Source: Candidatus Nealsonbacteria bacterium CG07_land_8_20_14_0_80_39_13
GTDB lineage: Bacteria > Patescibacteriota > Minisyncoccia > Minisyncoccales > GCA-002779355
NCBI GenBank assembly: GCA_002779355.1
Contig: PEWS01000027.1
Location: 1-39,667, forward strand
Direction of reading: 5' to 3'
DNA: 39,667 nucleotides
The position numbers were made by a program, and so were the translations under genes. Under the pieces are notes generated by a model. The model did no database searches, was not told where the DNA came from, and worked only from the letters and a program-made list of their open reading frames with translations. Below, piece by piece: positions 702 to 36,854 of this stretch; position 1 is the stretch's first letter; every line of letters begins with the position of its first letter.

Positions 702-1815
702 ATGGAAAATTTGAAAGAAAAACAAGAGAAACAGGAAGAGCTGCAAAAAAGAATCCTCGCGCTTGAGGACTGTCTTTGACGTTGAGAAAAAGAAAAACAT
801 GATAATTGAGATGGAAAAAGAAACCCTGTCTCCTAATTTTTGGGAGAGAAGGGAGGACGCAGTCAGGATCAGTCAGGAATTATCCCAGTTGAAAGAGGAT
901 GTGGCGGAAATGAATTGCCTGAAAGAGGATTTTGAGATAATAAGGGACTTAGGCGAAGAATTAGAGCTGGAAAAATTGGAAAAGAGAATAAAAGAAAAAG
1001 AAAAAATGCTTTTTCTTTCCGGAAAGTATGACAAGGGCAACGCCTTCCTGACTATTTATTCCGGGGCAGGCGGACAGGATGCGCAGGATTGGGTGGCTAT
1101 TCTGTTGAGAATGTATGAAAAATATTGTTCCCGCAAGAATTTTAAAGTAAAGATTTTGGATCAGGCCTTCGGAGAAGGAGGCGGGCCGGAAGGAAGAATT
1201 GGAGTAAAGCAAGTTTCTTTAGAAATTATCGGTCCATACGCCTACGGTCTTTTAAGAGGAGAAATGGGAGTTCATAGGTTGGTCAGGATTTCTCCTTTTT
1301 CTTCTAAATCTTTAAGGCACACCTCATTTACTTTAGTGGAGGTTTTGCCCGAAGTGAAGGAAGCGGGAGATATGATTGTTCCTCCGGATGATTTGAGAGT
1401 TGATCTTTATCGTTCTTCAGGGCCGGGCGGGCAGAATGTCAATAAAAGAGAGACAGCAGTCAGAATAACTCATTTGCCGACAGGAATTGTTGTCGCCTGC
1501 CAATCAGAAAGGTTGCAGGGTTCAAACAAACAGAAAGCGCTGGAAATTCTTTATTCAAAACTTTATGAATTGAATAAAGATAACAAAAAAAAGGAGATGT
1601 CTGAAATAAAGGGAGGAAGGATTTCAGCTGAATGGGGAAGCCAGATAAGATCTTATGTCGTTCATCCTTATAAAATGGTAAAAGATTTAAGGACGGATGT
1701 TGAGACTTCCGATGTGGATAAAATTTTAGACGGGGGACTTGATGATTTCATTGAAGCGGAACTTAAATTACCTGCCCGCAATGCTGAATATAGCGATGCA
1801 GGCGGGAAAAGCTAA
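702..1815 (+). CDS. prfB: Peptide chain release factor 2, made by +1 programmed frameshift (ORF0 702-776, then 778-1815)
   Basis: ORF0 reads MENLKEKQEKQEELQKRILALEDCL and ends at CTT TGA C (774-780), the classic RF2 shift site. The downstream frame carries the SPF and GGQ motifs (RISPFSS, SGPGGQNVNK). Confidence 0.93.
1771..1806 (+). repeat. GC-rich palindromic element, in-frame copy at the prfB C-terminus
   Basis: CCTGCCCGCAATGCT-GAATAT-AGCGATGCAGGCGGG. The arms pair, with wobbles and mismatches. It encodes PARNAEYSDAGG. Confidence 0.7.
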
Positions 1816-20075: not shown

Positions 20076-22079
20076 ATGATGGTTAAAAAGGAAGATTCAT
20101 TTTATCCGGGCAAGGAGTTTCAAAAAAGGGCTTGGGTAAAAAATAAATCCATTTATAAGGAAGCGGAAAAAAGTCCGATTAAATTTTGGGAGAAATTAGC
20201 CAAAGAACTTTTTTGGTTTAAGAAATGGAAGAAGGCATTTACTCACGACCCGAAGAAATTAAAGTTTCAATGGTTTTCCGGCGGAAAAATTAACATCACC
20301 GCTGATATTTTTGAAAACAATTTTCTCGGCTGGGATTCGGCTGAAAGCGGAATAAAAAACAAGCTGGCTTTGATTTGGGAACCGGAATCAACGGATGAGA
20401 AAGAGAGAAAATTTACCTATCAGGAATTATTTTCAGAAGTTAATCGTTTCGCCAACGCTCTTAAGAAAAGCGGGGTAAAGAAAGGCGATAGGGTGGGAAT
20501 ATACTTGCCGATGATTCCGGAGGCGGTGATTTCTATGCTTGCTTGCGCCAGAATAGGCGCTGTTCATGCTGTTGTTTTTTCCGCTTTTTCCGCAGAATCC
20601 TTAAGGGTTCGGCTTCAAGATACGAAAGCAAAAGTTTTAATTACTGTTGACGGTTATCATAGGAGAGGGAAAGTGGTTGACCTGAAGAAAAATGCTGATG
20701 AGGGAATTAAAGAGACAAGCATAGAAAAAATAATTATTTTCAAAAGAGCGGGGAATCCCGTTGACTGGAAGGATGGCAGGGATTTTTGGGCAAGCGAATT
20801 AACTAAGAATGAGAGCGATTATTGTAAACCGGCTATAATGGACGCTGAGGATTTGATGTTTATTCTTTACACCAGTGGCAGTACCGGCAAGCCAAAGGGT
20901 TGCGAGCATGTTTGTGGCGGTTATGCTGTTCAGTCATATTGGACAGGCAAATGGATATTTGATTTACATGGACCTGCCCGCAATGCTTCCGCCACAACTT
21001 CGCAGATGTTGGCGGATGCAGGCGGGGATGATATTTTTTGGTGCACAGCTGATATCGGCTGGGTGACAGGCCACACCTACGCCGTGTATTCTCCTTTGCT
21101 TAACGGAGCAACCTCTGTTATTTTTGAAGGCGCTCCTGATTGGCCGGGACCGGATAGGTGGGCTCAAATTATTGAGAAATACGGAATTACAGTTTTTTAT
21201 ACTGCGCCTACAGCTATCAGAATGTTTAAAAAGATGGGAGCGGAAATTATTAAAAAATACGGTTTTAAGACATTGCGGGTAATCGGTTCAGTAGGGGAAC
21301 CCATAGATGATACGGCTTGGAATTGGTATTTTGAAGAAGTTGGGAGAGGCAACTGTCCTCTGGTTGATACTTGGTGGCAGACGGAAACAGGGGGAATTTT
21401 GATCAGCTCTCTGCCCGGAGTCGGCCCCTTCAAGCCGTCTTTTACCGGCCGACCTTTTCCCGGATTAAAATTTGATATTTTGGATGACAATGGAAAGCCT
21501 GTTAAAACTGGAAAAGAGGGGAATTTGGTTTTATTCCCGCCCTTTTCCCCTTCGCTGTTGAGGGGAATTTATAAGAATTTTAAAAAATATAAGGAAACTT
21601 ATTGGAGTCAGTATGGAGGTAAAATATATGTTACTTCAGATACTGCTCTTAAAGATAAAAATGGTTTGATCAGAATAGTCGGCAGAGCCGATGACGTGAT
21701 TAAAGTGGCCGGGCATAGGATTACTACCGGTGAAATGGAGGCTGTAATTAATCGCTGTCCAGAAATAGCCGAGTGCGCAGTGATAGGAGTTTTTGATGAA
21801 ATAAAAGGTCAGGTTCCTGTAGTTTTTGCTGATATTAAGGGTGTGGAGAGAGATGTTGAAAAAATTAAGGAAGATATTGTCGTGCAAATACGGAAAGAAA
21901 TAGGGCCAATAGCGCTACCTAAGCAGGTCTACTTGGTTGACGAATTGCCAAAAACCCGTTCAGGCAAAATTATGCGCAGGATTTTGAGAAAATTATTTAC
22001 CGGAGAAGAATTAGGCGATTTATCCACTCTCTCAAATCCGGAAGCAGTAGAAGAAATCAGAAACCAAATAATTAAATAA
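20076..22079 (+). CDS. acs: Acetyl-CoA synthetase (AMP-forming)
   Basis: YTSGSTGKPKG, WCTADIGWVTGH, DTWWQTETGG, PKTRSGKIMRRILRK. Confidence 0.95.
   Translation: MMVKKEDSFYPGKEFQKRAWVKNKSIYKEAEKSPIKFWEKLAKELFWFKKWKKAFTHDPKKLKFQWFSGGKINITADIFENNFLGWDSAESGIKNKLALIWEPESTDEKERKFTYQELFSEVNRFANALKKSGVKKGDRVGIYLPMIPEAVISMLACARIGAVHAVVFSAFSAESLRVRLQDTKAKVLITVDGYHRRGKVVDLKKNADEGIKETSIEKIIIFKRAGNPVDWKDGRDFWASELTKNESDYCKPAIMDAEDLMFILYTSGSTGKPKGCEHVCGGYAVQSYWTGKWIFDLHGPARNASATTSQMLADAGGDDIFWCTADIGWVTGHTYAVYSPLLNGATSVIFEGAPDWPGPDRWAQIIEKYGITVFYTAPTAIRMFKKMGAEIIKKYGFKTLRVIGSVGEPIDDTAWNWYFEEVGRGNCPLVDTWWQTETGGILISSLPGVGPFKPSFTGRPFPGLKFDILDDNGKPVKTGKEGNLVLFPPFSPSLLRGIYKNFKKYKETYWSQYGGKIYVTSDTALKDKNGLIRIVGRADDVIKVAGHRITTGEMEAVINRCPEIAECAVIGVFDEIKGQVPVVFADIKGVERDVEKIKEDIVVQIRKEIGPIALPKQVYLVDELPKTRSGKIMRRILRKLFTGEELGDLSTLSNPEAVEEIRNQIIK
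20973..21027 (+). repeat. GC-rich palindromic element, long variant, in frame in acs
   Basis: CCTGCCCGCAATGCT-TCCGCCA..TGGCGGA-TGCAGGCGGGG. It encodes PARNASATTSQMLADAGG. Confidence 0.8.
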
Positions 22080-30015: not shown

Positions 30016-31140
30016 TTATTCTTCCTGCTCTTCGGCTGATTCCATGGCTTCTATAATGGGGTCAAGTCTTCCTTCCATTATCTCTTCAATGCCGTGGAAA
30101 GATTTTTTAATTCGGTGGTCGGTTACTCTGTCTTGAGGAAAATTGTAGGTTCTGTTTTTCTCCGCTCTTTTGGCCCTTCCTATTTGTCCTTTTCTGTCCC
30201 CGCCTAATTTTTGAGCCTCTTCCTCCTCTCTTATTTCAAGGAGGCGAGCTGATAGAACGCTCAAGGCGTTTTCTTTATTTTGGAGCTGGTTTCTTTCGGT
30301 CTGGGATTCAACGACCAATCCTGTCGGGATATGGACTATTCTTACAGCCGTCTCTCTTTTATTGACGTTTTGCCCGCCCGGTCCTGACGAACGGCAATAT
30401 TCAATTTTTAATTCATCAGGTTTAATTTCCAATTGAGTATTTTTCGGTTTCGGAAGAATGGCCACTGAAACGGTGGAAGTGTGTATTCTTCCGCTTTTTT
30501 CCGTTTCGGGAATTCTCTGGACTCTATGGACCCCGGACTCGTTTTTCATTTTAGAGAAAATATCGCCGTTCCCGTCCGCATCGCTATGCGAAGCGTTGCG
30601 GGTGGATTCCAGCTGAAATACGATTTCTTTAAATCCGCCAGTTTCAGTAGGGCTGGAATTAAGGATTTTTTGCCTCCAACCTTGCTGTTCCGCGAACCTT
30701 GAATACATCTTGAATAAATCTCCGACGAATAAAGCTGCTTCGTCTCCCCCTGCGCCGGCCCTGATTTCAACGATTATGTCTTGCGGTTCAGAGCTTTCTT
30801 TCTGGCCTTTGATTAATTTTTTTAATTCTTTTTCCAAGACCTCCTTTCTTTCCCTGAATTGAGTAATCTCAATTTCAGCCAAGGAGGATAATTCGGGGCC
30901 TTCTTTCCCATTCAGGATCGCCCTGTTTTCTTCAATTCTGTCGTCAATTTCTTTTATTTCTTTTTCTTTCTCAATTATTTTTTCAAGATAGCTTTTCCTT
31001 TTAGATAGTTCTTCAAATTTTTTCCAGCCCGCATCGCTACGCGAAGCGTTGCTGGCGGGCCAATCAGAAATCAGCTCAGGGTTGCTGAGCTGATTTAAAA
31101 TTTCTTTATATTCCCGCTGAATATCGCTTAGGTTATCCAT
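30016..31140 (-). CDS. prfA: Peptide chain release factor 1
   Basis: P-E-T tripeptide (RIPETEKSGRIHTS), GGQ (SGPGGQNVNK), and DHR near the C-terminus. Confidence 0.93.
   Translation of the reverse strand: MDNLSDIQREYKEILNQLSNPELISDWPASNASRSDAGWKKFEELSKRKSYLEKIIEKEKEIKEIDDRIEENRAILNGKEGPELSSLAEIEITQFRERKEVLEKELKKLIKGQKESSEPQDIIVEIRAGAGGDEAALFVGDLFKMYSRFAEQQGWRQKILNSSPTETGGFKEIVFQLESTRNASHSDADGNGDIFSKMKNESGVHRVQRIPETEKSGRIHTSTVSVAILPKPKNTQLEIKPDELKIEYCRSSGPGGQNVNKRETAVRIVHIPTGLVVESQTERNQLQNKENALSVLSARLLEIREEEEAQKLGGDRKGQIGRAKRAEKNRTYNFPQDRVTDHRIKKSFHGIEEIMEGRLDPIIEAMESAEEQEE
30571..30605 (-). repeat. GC-rich palindromic element, in-frame copy inside prfA
   Basis: On the coding strand: CCACCCGCAACGCTTCGCATAGCGATGCGGACGGG. 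It encodes TRNASHSDADG. Confidence 0.8.
31024..31062 (-). repeat. GC-rich palindromic element, in-frame copy near the prfA N-terminus
   Basis: On the coding strand: TGGCCCGCCAGCAACGCTTCGCGTAGCGATGCGGGCTGG. It encodes WPASNASRSDAGW. Confidence 0.8.
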
Positions 31141-31537: not shown

Positions 31538-32302
31538 ATGACCGAAGATAAAAAGAAGAATAAAATAAAAACAGCAGACGAAGCAAAGGAAGGACTTGAC
31601 TTTGAAGAATTAGTTAAGGCCGGTTTGTATTTTGGCCACAAAACTTCAAGCACTCATCCTAAGATGAAGCAATACATTGAATCGTCAAGGAATAGAATTC
31701 ATATTATTGATTTGGCGAAAACAGCGGAAAAATTAAAAGAAGTTCTTGATTTTATCGGCGATCTGGTTTCTCAAGGGAAAGAAATTCTTTTTGTCGGCAC
31801 CAAGATTCAGGTAAAAGATAAAATAAAAGAGGTGGCTGAAGAATGCCATCTTCCTTACGTCAATCAAAGATGGCTCGGAGGAACATTCACTAATTTCGAA
31901 ACAATCAAAAAGAGATTGGAATATTTCAGGAGTTTGGAAATGCAGAAGGCTTCAGGCGAGCTCCAAAAATACGTAAAGAAAGAAAGACTTAAGATTGACA
32001 GAGAAATAGAGGGGCTGAGGAAGAAATTCGGAGGCATTAAAAATTTGGAAAAACTTCCGACAGCTGTATTCGTTACAGATATGAAAGAAAACATCCTGGT
32101 TGTAAAGGAGGCCAGAGAGAAGGGGATAATAGTGATTGCTATCGCTGACACTAATGTTAACCCGGCGTTGGCGGATCATTTCATTCCCGCTAACGACGAC
32201 GCTATTTCTTCGTTAAATTATATTCTGGACAGAGTGAAGAAAGCAATTTTAGAAGCCAAACCCCAGCCAAAGGCCAGTCAGCCTCTGGCTGACAAAAAAT
32301 AA
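31538..32302 (+). CDS. rpsB: Ribosomal protein S2
   Basis: GLYFGHKTS..HPKM, ILFVGTK, VFVTD, AIADTN. Confidence 0.95.
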   Translation: MTEDKKKNKIKTADEAKEGLDFEELVKAGLYFGHKTSSTHPKMKQYIESSRNRIHIIDLAKTAEKLKEVLDFIGDLVSQGKEILFVGTKIQVKDKIKEVAEECHLPYVNQRWLGGTFTNFETIKKRLEYFRSLEMQKASGELQKYVKKERLKIDREIEGLRKKFGGIKNLEKLPTAVFVTDMKENILVVKEAREKGIIVIAIADTNVNPALADHFIPANDDAISSLNYILDRVKKAILEAKPQPKASQPLADKK

Positions 32303-35148: not shown

Positions 35149-35742
35149 ATGATTTTTTATAAAATTTTTTCTTATATATACAAAAGAGCGGCTCGGAGCA
35201 TGTGCCTGGACTGCAAGGATTTTATAAAGAATGGGGCGAAAATTCTTGATTTAGGTTGCGGTTCGGGAATAGCCGGAGATTATTTTAAAAAATTTTTTAA
35301 GGCCGAGGTTTTTGGGGTGGATGTAAAAAATAATAGGGTGGTTGATCTTCCCTTTAAAAAAATAGACGGGAAAAATCTTCCCTTTGATGATAATTCGTTT
35401 GACGCAGTTCTGATATGCTATGTTCTTCACCACGCCGAAGACCCCATCGCCGTTTTAAAAGAAGCGAGGAGGGTGGGGAAGGAAAGGATTGTTATTTACG
35501 AAGATATGGCTGACGGATTTTTTTCAAAATTATTCTGCCGTTTCCATGGATTAAGCTTTGATATTTTCTTTCAGGGATTTGTCGGCAAAAAGCGGGAAAA
35601 TCCGGAATATTTTTTTAAGGGGGAGAAAGAATGGCAGGGGATTTTTAAGGGATTGGGGCTGAAAGTTGTTTTTGAGAAAAGGATTTCGTTGCCGATTTCC
35701 CCGGTCGCCAAAAGAATTTTTATTTTAGATATCGTAAAATAA
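35149..35742 (+). CDS. Class I SAM-dependent methyltransferase
   Basis: Motif I ILDLGCGSGIAG and the post-I acidic residue; FDAVLICYVLHH. Confidence 0.8.
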   Translation: MIFYKIFSYIYKRAARSMCLDCKDFIKNGAKILDLGCGSGIAGDYFKKFFKAEVFGVDVKNNRVVDLPFKKIDGKNLPFDDNSFDAVLICYVLHHAEDPIAVLKEARRVGKERIVIYEDMADGFFSKLFCRFHGLSFDIFFQGFVGKKRENPEYFFKGEKEWQGIFKGLGLKVVFEKRISLPISPVAKRIFILDIVK

Positions 35743-35767: not shown

Positions 35768-35831
35768 GCGTGTGTAGCTTCGGCCTCGTCCAGAGGACGA
35801 TCAGCCTTTGGCTGAGGTTAGAGCGCGTCAC
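35768..35831 (+). pseudogene. Decayed duplicate of the 5' half of tRNA-Ile (nt 1-32), with 37 nt replacing 6 nt of the D loop
   Basis: GCGTGTGTAGCT + 37 nt + GTTAGAGCGCGTCAC, compared with the intact GCGCGTGTAGCT-CAGTTG-GTTAGAGCGCGTCAC at 36091-36123. Confidence 0.7.
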
Positions 35832-35839
35832 CTTTGGAT

Positions 35840-36100
35840 ATGTTCTGTGTGTATTTTTTGAAAAGCATTAAAAATGGTAAGATTTACGTAGGATTTACTT
35901 CTAAAAATATTGAGGTAAGGGTTGAAGAACATAATAGCGGTTCAAACGTTTTTACGAAAAACAATAAGCCATGGGTTTTGGTATATTATGAGATATTTAG
36001 TTGTGAAAAATGCGCTAGAGCGAGAGAGAAGTTTTTTAAATCGGGTATGGGTAAAAGATTAAAAAAGATAATTGTAGATAATTTTAATATGCGCGTGTAG
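35840..36100 (+). CDS. Small GIY-YIG nuclease family protein
   Basis: VYFLKS..GKIYVGFTSKNIEVRVEEHNSG is the GIY-YIG motif. The stop codon TAG lies inside the tRNA-Ile gene. The track start 35834 is TTG. Confidence 0.8.
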   Translation: MFCVYFLKSIKNGKIYVGFTSKNIEVRVEEHNSGSNVFTKNNKPWVLVYYEIFSCEKCARAREKFFKSGMGKRLKKIIVDNFNMRV

Positions 36101-36164
36101 CTCAGTTGGTTAGAGCGCGTCACTGATAATGACGAGGTCCGTGGTTCGAGTCCACGCTCGCGCA
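36091..36164 (+). tRNA. tRNA-Ile (anticodon GAU)
   Basis: GCGCGTG-TA-GCTC-AGTTGGTTA-GAGC-G-CGTCA-CTGATAA-TGACG-AGGTC-CGTGG-TTCGAGT-CCACG-CTCGCGC-A. Confidence 0.9.
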
Positions 36165-36243
36165 CTCTTTCACCTCGCTCTCTTGCCGTTATTCGGCAGG
36201 GGGAACGGAGTTTTGTTTTAAGGCGGTTTTTTGTTTGAAATAC

Positions 36244-36422: not shown

Positions 36423-36854
36423 AGAAGTTCCTTCTTAGTCAGGAGGATTTCAATGATTTTTCTAGATTTGAAGATGCAGAGAGCTGCATTTTCAAGGACG
36501 AAAAATTCCCGTGCGCCTTCACGGGATAGGTGTTTAAGGGAGCACGACAATAATTGTCCTCTGCCCCTATATTTCTAAGTTCGGAATTACATTATTAAAA
36601 AATTACGAATTTAGAAATGCTCCGGTCCCGCTGAAAGCGGGACGGGGGTTTAAAGAAAGAAGTCGGAAGCGCTTTCGCGACGGGGATATCTCTTTCCAGT
36701 TCTTCGCAAGAAGAACAATCTCTGTTACGAAAGCACCCCCGGCTTTTTTCAGTCCAGAGGACTATTCAGCCCAGAGAGCTTTCAAGTTGTAAATGTGTCA
36801 ATGAGGAGGTAAAATAGAAAAATAAGAACAATATTTAGAATATTTTTGAACTCT

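Follow-up and report, generated by a model that had tools for sequence, protein, structure and literature searches.

The window analyzed here is the whole 39,667-nucleotide stretch of contig PEWS01000027.1 (positions 1 to 39,667, forward strand) from Candidatus Nealsonbacteria bacterium CG07_land_8_20_14_0_80_39_13, and the feature of interest is a 36-nucleotide (nt) hairpin element that lies in frame inside its prfA gene, which encodes the class I release factor RF1. The host protein has the PCRF and RF-1 domains, the GGQ motif, and the PxT motif of RF1; its near-identical cluster (P0001) matched both PF03462 and PF00472, and the window protein aligned to Thermus RF1 with an E value of 1e-86. 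The element begins on a codon boundary at codon 179 and encodes S-T-R-N-A-S-H-S-D-A-D-G, with 20 residues between its end and the P211 of the PET codon-recognition tripeptide. An earlier note on this DNA had placed a palindromic element in frame in RF1 domain 2, and this held up, as the closest relative lacks exactly 36 nt and Thermus RF1 has a gap at that position. Some of its details needed adjustment: the 35-mer that it delimited at 30571-30605 is present on the minus strand, but the full unit extends to 30606; the peptide that it bracketed, TRNASHSDADGN, is off by one residue relative to codons 179-190; and its spacing of "about 25 residues" upstream of PxT is an overestimate.

The in-frame insertion of a dispersed hairpin repeat into this essential gene is clean and genuine. 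The closest RF1 relative (P0002, on L124; 83% amino acid identity, 347 amino acids [aa]) has exactly 36 nt fewer at both of the sites where the window prfA carries a copy, so the ortholog alignment that the earlier note had proposed as a check finds the insert absent from that relative at both positions. At the mid-gene site, the empty L124 sequence reads CTGGAA directly followed by AATGGC, and in the window 36 nt stand between GAA and AAC. At the N-terminal site, the L124 flanks read GAT(TGG) followed by AAA, with only a 3-nt TGG ambiguity. No target duplication was found in this comparison of empty and filled alleles at the two prfA sites, and the aligned sequences indicate that 36 nt were added to prfA as a clean block without target-site duplication.

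The RF1 of Thermus thermophilus, known from ribosome-bound structures, shows a gap at each insert site, and the mid-gene insert maps to its VRG/PG turn, upstream of the PVT tripeptide. An AlphaFold2 model returned coil and pLDDT values below 50 at residues 28-35 and 182-191, with the mid insert between a strand (170-179) and a helix (194-201). This position is a loop of RF1 domain 2 that is preceded by a beta-strand and followed by a short helix. If the inserts are translated, the expected tryptic peptides are NASHSDADGNGDIFSK from the mid insert and SDAGWK from the N-terminal one.

Further copies of the element lie in prfA itself, in prfB (RF2), and, as a longer variant, in the acetyl-CoA synthetase gene acs (Table 1), and all four window copies are oriented alike with respect to the host gene and are read in the same frame (F0). 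The three 36-nt copies align base by base, as the earlier note had stated for the prfB and prfA N-terminal copies, with nhmmer E values of about 1e-11 each, and they surface in the window repeat search (family D6 and inverted pair I9). Their hairpin folds range from −17.7 to −21.7 kcal/mol (z-scores of −2.5 to −4.1), and the acs variant region reaches −17.8 kcal/mol in a sliding-window fold calculated without a shuffle control. The 35-mer itself is unique in the window at up to 3 mismatches, with 0 chance matches expected. Relative to the 36-nt family consensus, CCYGCCCGCAAYGCTTCGCRTAGCGATGCRGGCGGG, the mid prfA copy has 3 substitutions (C1>T, G4>A, G32>A) and combines diagnostic bases from both main variants, the N-terminal prfA copy is identical to a CCAGC/GCTGG subvariant known from 5 unrelated genome loci, and the loop of the prfB copy has diverged (GAATA instead of TCGCA). 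The acs variant, which the earlier note did not list, retains the outer stems, ends, and frame of the 36-nt unit around a different inner hairpin, and the same pattern of constant outer stem and variable inner part was also found beside GIY-YIG genes. With regard to prfB itself, translation begins at ATG 703, and the open reading frame (ORF) listed from TTG 763 is the post-shift frame; the gene carries the canonical autoregulatory +1 site, from which it follows that UGA is a stop codon in this organism.

Table 1. Positions of the element copies, their host genes, and hairpin- or nuclease-related features in the window
Feature	Position	Strand	Remarks
prfA (RF1, 374 aa)	30016-31140	-	Host gene; GGQ (255-257) and PET (211-213) intact
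36-nt hairpin element, prfA codons 179-190 (S179-G190), STRNASHSDADG	30571-30606	-	Exact 12-codon insert
Second prfA copy, codons 28-39, PASNASRSDAGW	31024-31059	-	Base-by-base alignment, nhmmer
prfB (RF2)	703-1815	+	Host gene; +1 frameshift site CTT TGA C at 774-780
prfB copy, PARNAEYSDAGG, 2 codons before stop	1771-1806	+	Base-by-base alignment, nhmmer
acs (acetyl-CoA synthetase) 54-nt / 18-codon variant, PARNASATTSQMLADAGG	20973-21026	+	nhmmer E 0.013
GIY-YIG gene, single-domain, ~86 aa from ATG	35840-36100	+	Clade elsewhere adjoins the 36-nt element
Duplicated tRNA-Ile 5' fragment, D-arm split by a different hairpin	35768-35832	+	Same architecture as element-bearing GIY-YIG loci
Second-family hairpin, ~38 nt	35780-35817		−20.2 kcal/mol
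Intact tRNA-Ile(GAT)	36091-36165	+	Directly after the GIY-YIG gene; Rfam scan
197-aa ORF	35149-35742		Between the 16S rRNA and GIY-YIG genes
Reverse-complement copy of the second hairpin in the rpsB C-terminal tail	32259-32288		80% over 30 nt
Strongest local hairpin of the window, CTCCGGTCCCGCTGAAAGCGGGACGGGGG	36607-36650		−24 kcal/mol; outside every ORF of at least 100 aa

The element belongs to a widely dispersed family. A 22-nt core (GCAAYGCTTCGCRTAGCGATGC) scanned over one genome per GTDB species (596 Gb) matched at least 120 stretches, compared with a chance estimate of about 4. Among the matches listed, judged by record title, 58 loci came from the candidate phyla radiation (CPR; Patescibacteria) and 40 from Verrucomicrobiota, Kiritimatiellia, and Lentisphaerae, with smaller numbers from Bdellovibrionales (7), Gammaproteobacteria (4), and unclassified records (8) and one each from Terriglobales, Chloroflexota, and Margulisiibacteriota. 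The same family is thus found at many unrelated loci in genomes labeled as several phyla, and the G+C content of these loci ranges from 0.29 to 0.66. With no blastn match in plasmid and phage collections and only 3 matches in IMG/VR, a phage or plasmid vector is unsupported. Scanning the window and five loci at Rfam gathering thresholds returned only rRNA and tRNA and no family at the element, and the translated repeat matched no Pfam model. A full-text literature search with the DNA core (either strand) and the peptides retrieved no paper, and literature searches on CPR palindromic or in-frame repeats yielded nothing specific.

Across the family, the conserved block measures exactly 36 nt, with sharp ends, unrelated flanks, and background levels reached right at both ends. 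Among 122 copies, no target-site duplication, target motif, or extension of the stem into the flanks was detected beyond weak base preferences; most copies lacked a flanking direct repeat entirely, and matches of greater length were rare. There are two main variants with four linked diagnostic positions, as well as rarer variants with compensatory changes (CCAGC...GCTGG and CCTGC...GCAGG). Covariation among 45 distinct copies supports an offset hairpin (0 of 500 shuffles reached the observed score) composed of a 4-nt 5' tail (CCYG), a 5-bp outer stem, a 4-nt 3' bulge, an inner stem, and a 6-nt loop, with C-G, A-U, and U-A pairs all occurring at columns 7/34. A fully symmetric palindrome was rejected as the conserved structure because the corresponding covariation signal was absent. 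Since the offset hairpin has a 5' tail and a 3' bulge, the element is directional, and this strand asymmetry is the one computational hint of the strand-specific binding and cutting of single-stranded DNA that an Ssn system would show. Nested copies occur at 7 loci (L031, L032, L044, L082, L099, L104, and L110), where one unit sits at the dyad or loop center (TTCG^CGTA) of another. Nesting at the loop center is far commoner than random targeting predicts, which hints at structure-directed insertion. In Lentisphaerae GWF2_57_35, the same variant, in which 2 nt are inserted (GCGCAGGCGG), is found at five loci (L035, L070, L090, L103, and L117); the flanks of these loci are similar too, and the hairpin there is therefore part of a longer repeat.

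As a unit of 12 codons, the element never shifts the reading frame upon insertion. Five of its six frames are open, with a TAG in the third forward frame, and every copy in coding DNA is a multiple of three in length (36 or 54 nt). About half of the copies lie in ORFs, and 55 are in no long ORF. One frame dominates: 33 copies inside clear ORFs were read in F0, compared with 7 in F1, 7 in R0, 5 in R1, and 4 in R2, and after computational removal of the unit the counts were 27, 4, 4, 5, and 5, respectively. The stop-containing frame, F2, is not callable inside an ORF and accounted for 2 copies after removal. Recurrent housekeeping hosts were leucyl-tRNA synthetase (LeuRS; four times), RF1, tryptophanyl-tRNA synthetase (TrpRS), polynucleotide phosphorylase (PNPase), and TatD. 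The F0 peptide is PARNASHSDAGG, or P-A-R-N-A-S-H-S-D-A-G-G. Small and polar, with Pro and Gly as its caps, this peptide is of a kind that surface loops accommodate, the same rationale as has been given for Rickettsia palindromic elements. There is a strong case that the insert is translated and tolerated by RF1 as a flexible surface loop.

The same two RF1 positions have been filled repeatedly. Among the 120 nearest RF1 homologs (CPR, Parcubacteria-type), 22 have extra residues at the N-terminal site (6 or more) and 20 at the mid site (4 or more). P0010 and P0117 carry the same family in the form PASNASRSDAGW, P0014 carries it in the form PARNASHSDAGG, and P0003 has two tandem copies. Other homologs hold different repeat families, among them GDESKDSSSPFAGARV, of which as many as three copies stand in tandem, or short PAR..GG or SAGAGG stretches that look like decayed remnants. 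The earlier note had held that finding the segment at the same RF1 site in distant bacteria would refute its reading, and the same loop does also carry the element in Parcubacteria P0014 and P0003. However, the P0014 mid-site copy, which sits at the same or an adjacent codon, matches the consensus of the other main subfamily perfectly, with T, T, A, and A as its four diagnostic bases, whereas the window copy is a diverged C/G type. Because P0014 holds a different and perfect subfamily copy, recurrent independent insertion into a permissive RF1 loop is more likely than an ancestral RF1 feature. In L212 (1080-1222, RF1 of P0079), and also in P0038, P0040, P0069, and P0088, the N-terminal RF1 site is taken up by a different unit of 48 nt, which encodes G(D/N)ESKDSSSxFAGARV and occurs in up to three tandem copies.

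Clustering of ORFs near the 120 element loci listed revealed a recurrent 80-aa protein adjoining the element. It is a single-domain GIY-YIG protein (80 to 83 aa, with PF01541 as the sole domain-level match) whose gene lies within about 50 nt of the element at 5 of the 120 loci; no transposase-like family recurs within 2.5 kb of the 120 loci. In the reverse direction, 80 independent metagenome loci of GIY-YIG relatives (252 kb in total) were searched with nhmmer, and 5 of the 6 element matches with E values below 1e-5 lay 15 to 30 nt from the gene, with several partial matches nearby. When the search was widened to a superfamily pattern of the same outer stems with a variable inner part, 18 hairpins were found in the 23 kb within 150 nt of a GIY-YIG gene versus 1 in the other 210 kb, or 0.78 versus 0.005 per kb (about 160-fold).

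Small GIY-YIG proteins with hairpin partners have a precedent in Neisseria SsnA, a 94-aa single-domain protein that binds the directional hairpin repeat NTS as single-stranded DNA only and cuts beside it; thousands of homologs across bacteria are flanked by their own 20- to 50-nt hairpins (SRM), and the role of Ssn proteins outside Neisseria was left open (Chenal et al. 2025, PMC11893778). A gonococcal SsnA ortholog, taken from a gonococcal chromosome in the plasmid collection and flanked by seven canonical NTS copies, aligned over its full length with the GIY-YIG clade described here (32% identity over 78 aa, pairwise E of 2e-12; the same match reached only 4e-4 in a 7.3-Gb search), and the window GIY-YIG protein is 33% identical to it. 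The solved structures nearest to the clade are UPF0213 proteins (E of 7e-5).

These GIY-YIG genes are typically nested inside duplicated tRNA fragments, in one of two arrangements. In the first, the hairpin interrupts the D-arm of a duplicated 5' part of a tRNA, which is followed by the GIY-YIG gene and then by the intact tRNA; in the second, seen in Verrucomicrobia, an intact tRNA-Val precedes the gene, which is followed by a duplicated 3' fragment with the hairpin in its T-arm. At L011 (1280-1710) and L201, a 54-nt direct repeat flanks the GIY-YIG gene, and its distal copy has the 36-nt element in the T-arm. This repeat consists of the 3' part of tRNA-Val, 24 nt downstream, and the gene's own start codon, and it resembles the trace left by a cassette that integrates at tRNA genes.

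The window contains a cassette of the first form (35768-36165), located between the 16S rRNA gene and tRNA-Ile. The order from 33471 is the 16S rRNA gene, the 197-aa ORF, the GIY-YIG gene, and tRNA-Ile; no 23S gene follows within the window, and the rRNA operon is therefore interrupted or unlinked. A reverse-complement copy of the cassette's hairpin is found in the C-terminal tail of rpsB (..KPQPKASQPLA..), which brings the hairpin families that have entered coding DNA in this genome to at least two. The strongest local hairpin of the window may be a terminator or represent another repeat family. Elsewhere, in the tRNA-Arg(CCG) gene of a Chloroflexota metagenome-assembled genome (MAG) (L094, 1826-1936, minus strand), the 36-nt element lies within the 3' strand of the anticodon stem or at its edge; this tRNA gene scores 46.7 bits with Rfam, was not called by ARAGORN, and may be dead or need the insert removed. 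A tRNA-intron identity for the family was discarded, as L094 is the only tRNA gene carrying the element and the remaining tRNA-like hosts are duplicated fragments adjacent to GIY-YIG genes.

Taken together, the prfA segment is a copy of a dispersed, directional 36-nt hairpin repeat that is probably both tolerated as a translated loop and the cognate of an SsnA-related GIY-YIG clade. The family as a whole would be the cognate hairpin of this ~80-aa single-domain clade. Its nuclease genes would lie in cassettes nested at tRNA genes, with the hairpin carried by the duplicated tRNA fragment of each cassette. Solitary hairpins would most likely be seeded elsewhere, coding DNA included, when single-stranded DNA is nicked and then copied or repaired. 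Selection would then filter the surviving insertions for permissive loops and a benign frame. Spread of the element by an Ssn-like nuclease is a reasonable inference from these associations. A broader version, which we advance tentatively and would put at somewhat less than even chances, is that cross-phylum, coding-compatible 12-codon hairpins generated or spread by Ssn-like GIY-YIG nucleases homing into tRNA genes cause a constant gain and wearing away of surface loops in the essential proteins of CPR and Verrucomicrobiota-group bacteria, for example in their release factors and aminoacyl-tRNA synthetases.

Several observations weigh against this explanation. Superfamily hairpins occur within 150 nt of the gene at only 15 of the 80 GIY-YIG loci, the hairpin beside the window GIY-YIG gene is the different one of ~38 nt rather than the 36-nt element, and no pair of cognate gene and 36-nt element was seen in this genome. 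The direction of change in prfA, insertion versus precise loss, is assigned by parsimony. Ssn proteins are not known to have an insertion activity, and SsnA is known only for cutting single-stranded DNA. The similarity of the clade to SsnA appears to fall below the threshold used to define homologs (tblastn E < 1e-10; PMC11893778). The published SRM pattern, HGTCWYN(0-2)YYVSBRHN(0-5)WNVSBRGN(0-2)RNCYNB, matched canonical NTS as a positive control and 0 of 136 copies of the element on either strand.

The best-surviving alternative, though an unlikely one, is a mobile hairpin that spread by other means, through either a REP-type Y1 transposase (RAYT or IS200/IS605-like) acting in trans or template switching at hairpins during replication or repair, with GIY-YIG genes and hairpins merely co-accumulating in tolerant tRNA-flanking DNA. 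Lack of target duplication and an asymmetric hairpin are also features of single-strand transposition, the seven nested copies at the dyad center suggest a structure-directed process, and both the low occupancy of GIY-YIG loci by hairpins and the fact that SsnA is known as a nuclease only fit this scenario. Yet the family that recurs within 2.5 kb of the 120 element loci is the GIY-YIG gene and not a transposase, the ~160-fold enrichment comes with a stereotyped spacing of 15 to 30 nt, and no 5' GTAG or CGTC tag adjoins the palindrome.

It is improbable that the insert is instead a selected feature of release factor genes, either an mRNA hairpin tuning prfA and prfB translation or a loop altering RF1 function. 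Such a role could be read from the location of 3 of the 4 window copies in class I release factor genes, from the inserts in ~18% of related RF1s at each of the same two sites, and from the stability of the hairpins. However, the unit is also found in LeuRS, TrpRS, PNPase, acs, tRNA fragments, and intergenic DNA across phyla, the nearest relative does without it, and different repeat families hold the N-terminal site in different RF1s. The clustering of copies in release factor genes of the window most likely reflects permissive loops rather than a release-factor-specific function.

Slightly less probable still is that the 36 nt are untranslated, being cut from the mRNA or bypassed by the ribosome like mitochondrial bypass elements, so that a normal RF1 results. 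A stable hairpin within an essential gene and the interrupted anticodon stem of the L094 tRNA-Arg, where a functional tRNA would require removal of the insert, would be explained in this way; however, coding copies keep to multiples of three, the stop-containing frame is almost absent while one benign frame dominates, and copies decay in place yet leave the ORF open. We know of no bacterial machinery for removal or bypass of such inserts, which also counts against this possibility. An assembly or sequencing artifact, which the earlier note had raised, has a negligible chance of being correct: although the genome matches listed all come from MAGs or single-cell genomes, with none in plasmid or phage collections from cultured isolates, the allele, whose RF1 cluster shares 99% identity with the window protein, is present on five contigs, four of them from four samples and with MEGAHIT- and SPAdes-style names, the matches listed include a single-cell genome (L100) and several contig-naming styles, and an artifact would not account for the frame bias, in situ divergence, and covariation.

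The prfA insert illustrates how short selfish DNA can colonize the most constrained genes of very small genomes, leaving footprints that become protein loops. Such inserts inflate protein lengths, perturb marker-gene alignments and phylogenies in uncultured bacteria, and could pass for lineage-specific functional loops. For the Ssn paradigm, the family would constitute a second hairpin class, largely intragenic and tied to tRNA-nested gene cassettes, and Ssn nucleases would, if this is true, gain a role in repeat dissemination and protein evolution. Gene-hairpin pairs such as L115 and L132 make a direct test of repeat spreading by its own nuclease possible.

Among known repeats, Rickettsia palindromic elements (RPEs; Ogata et al. 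2000; PMC10969869) are comparable as palindromic selfish repeats found in frame in unrelated housekeeping genes of small genomes and translated into additional stretches of peptide with which the fold of the protein can cope. They differ in measuring ~100 to 150 bp (30 to 50 residues), in being restricted to Rickettsia, and in having no known associated gene, whereas the element here is a quarter of that size (36 nt, 12 residues), occurs in several phyla, and is linked to a nuclease gene. The feature of an in-frame palindrome in unrelated coding genes is thus shared, and those of size and confinement to Rickettsia are not. Repetitive extragenic palindromes (REP/REPIN) and their RAYT partners (PMC3733652, PMC3116915) are similar in consisting of ~35-nt GC-rich hairpins with a nonpalindromic directional tail and high copy number and in having a dedicated enzyme gene flanked by the repeat, but REPs are extragenic and species specific, with a 5' GTAG or CGTC tag and a Y1 HUH transposase as partner. 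A REP/RAYT identity was rejected on the basis of the 5' tail CCYG, the occurrence of GTAG only in the loop, and the absence of a recurrent transposase within 2.5 kb of the 120 element loci. The element was likewise not assignable to miniature inverted-repeat transposable elements, given the missing target-site duplication at the prfA sites and the lack of flanking direct repeats in most copies, or to CRISPR repeats, as copies are solitary or nested and no arrays occur in the window or the loci.

Fungal mitochondrial GC clusters, double-hairpin elements, and translational bypass elements are also short, GC-rich mobile hairpins in AT-rich compact genomes, and like the element here they invade coding and RNA genes, although they are organellar rather than bacterial. 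Bypass elements are untranslated and not bound to multiples of three, unlike the family described here, and we know of no GIY-YIG link of this kind for mitochondrial hairpin elements. In phage T4, SegB acts in the tRNA gene region. The free-standing GIY-YIG homing endonucleases of the Seg group (PMC13096335) resemble the present genes in lying beside or between tRNA genes as a selfish cassette and differ in having DNA-binding domains, in cutting double-stranded DNA, and in having no known dispersed hairpin repeat.

The closest comparison is with Ssn nucleases and their repeats. The element resembles both Ssn repeats and RPEs yet falls outside the sequence definitions of both. It has no CGTC tag and lies outside the SRM pattern, about half of its copies are in ORFs and in frame compared with 2% intragenic copies for NTS (PMC11893778), its partner genes are usually nested in a tRNA duplication, its hosts are mainly CPR and Verrucomicrobiota-group bacteria, and the similarity to SsnA is weak (32%). 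The system behaves like an Ssn-hairpin pair, with membership in Ssn/SRM not established. The likeness lies in the overall design: a small single-domain GIY-YIG gene closely flanked by a directional hairpin of 20 to 50 nt, the same hairpin scattered throughout the genome, and many gene-repeat pairs of differing sequence across phyla.

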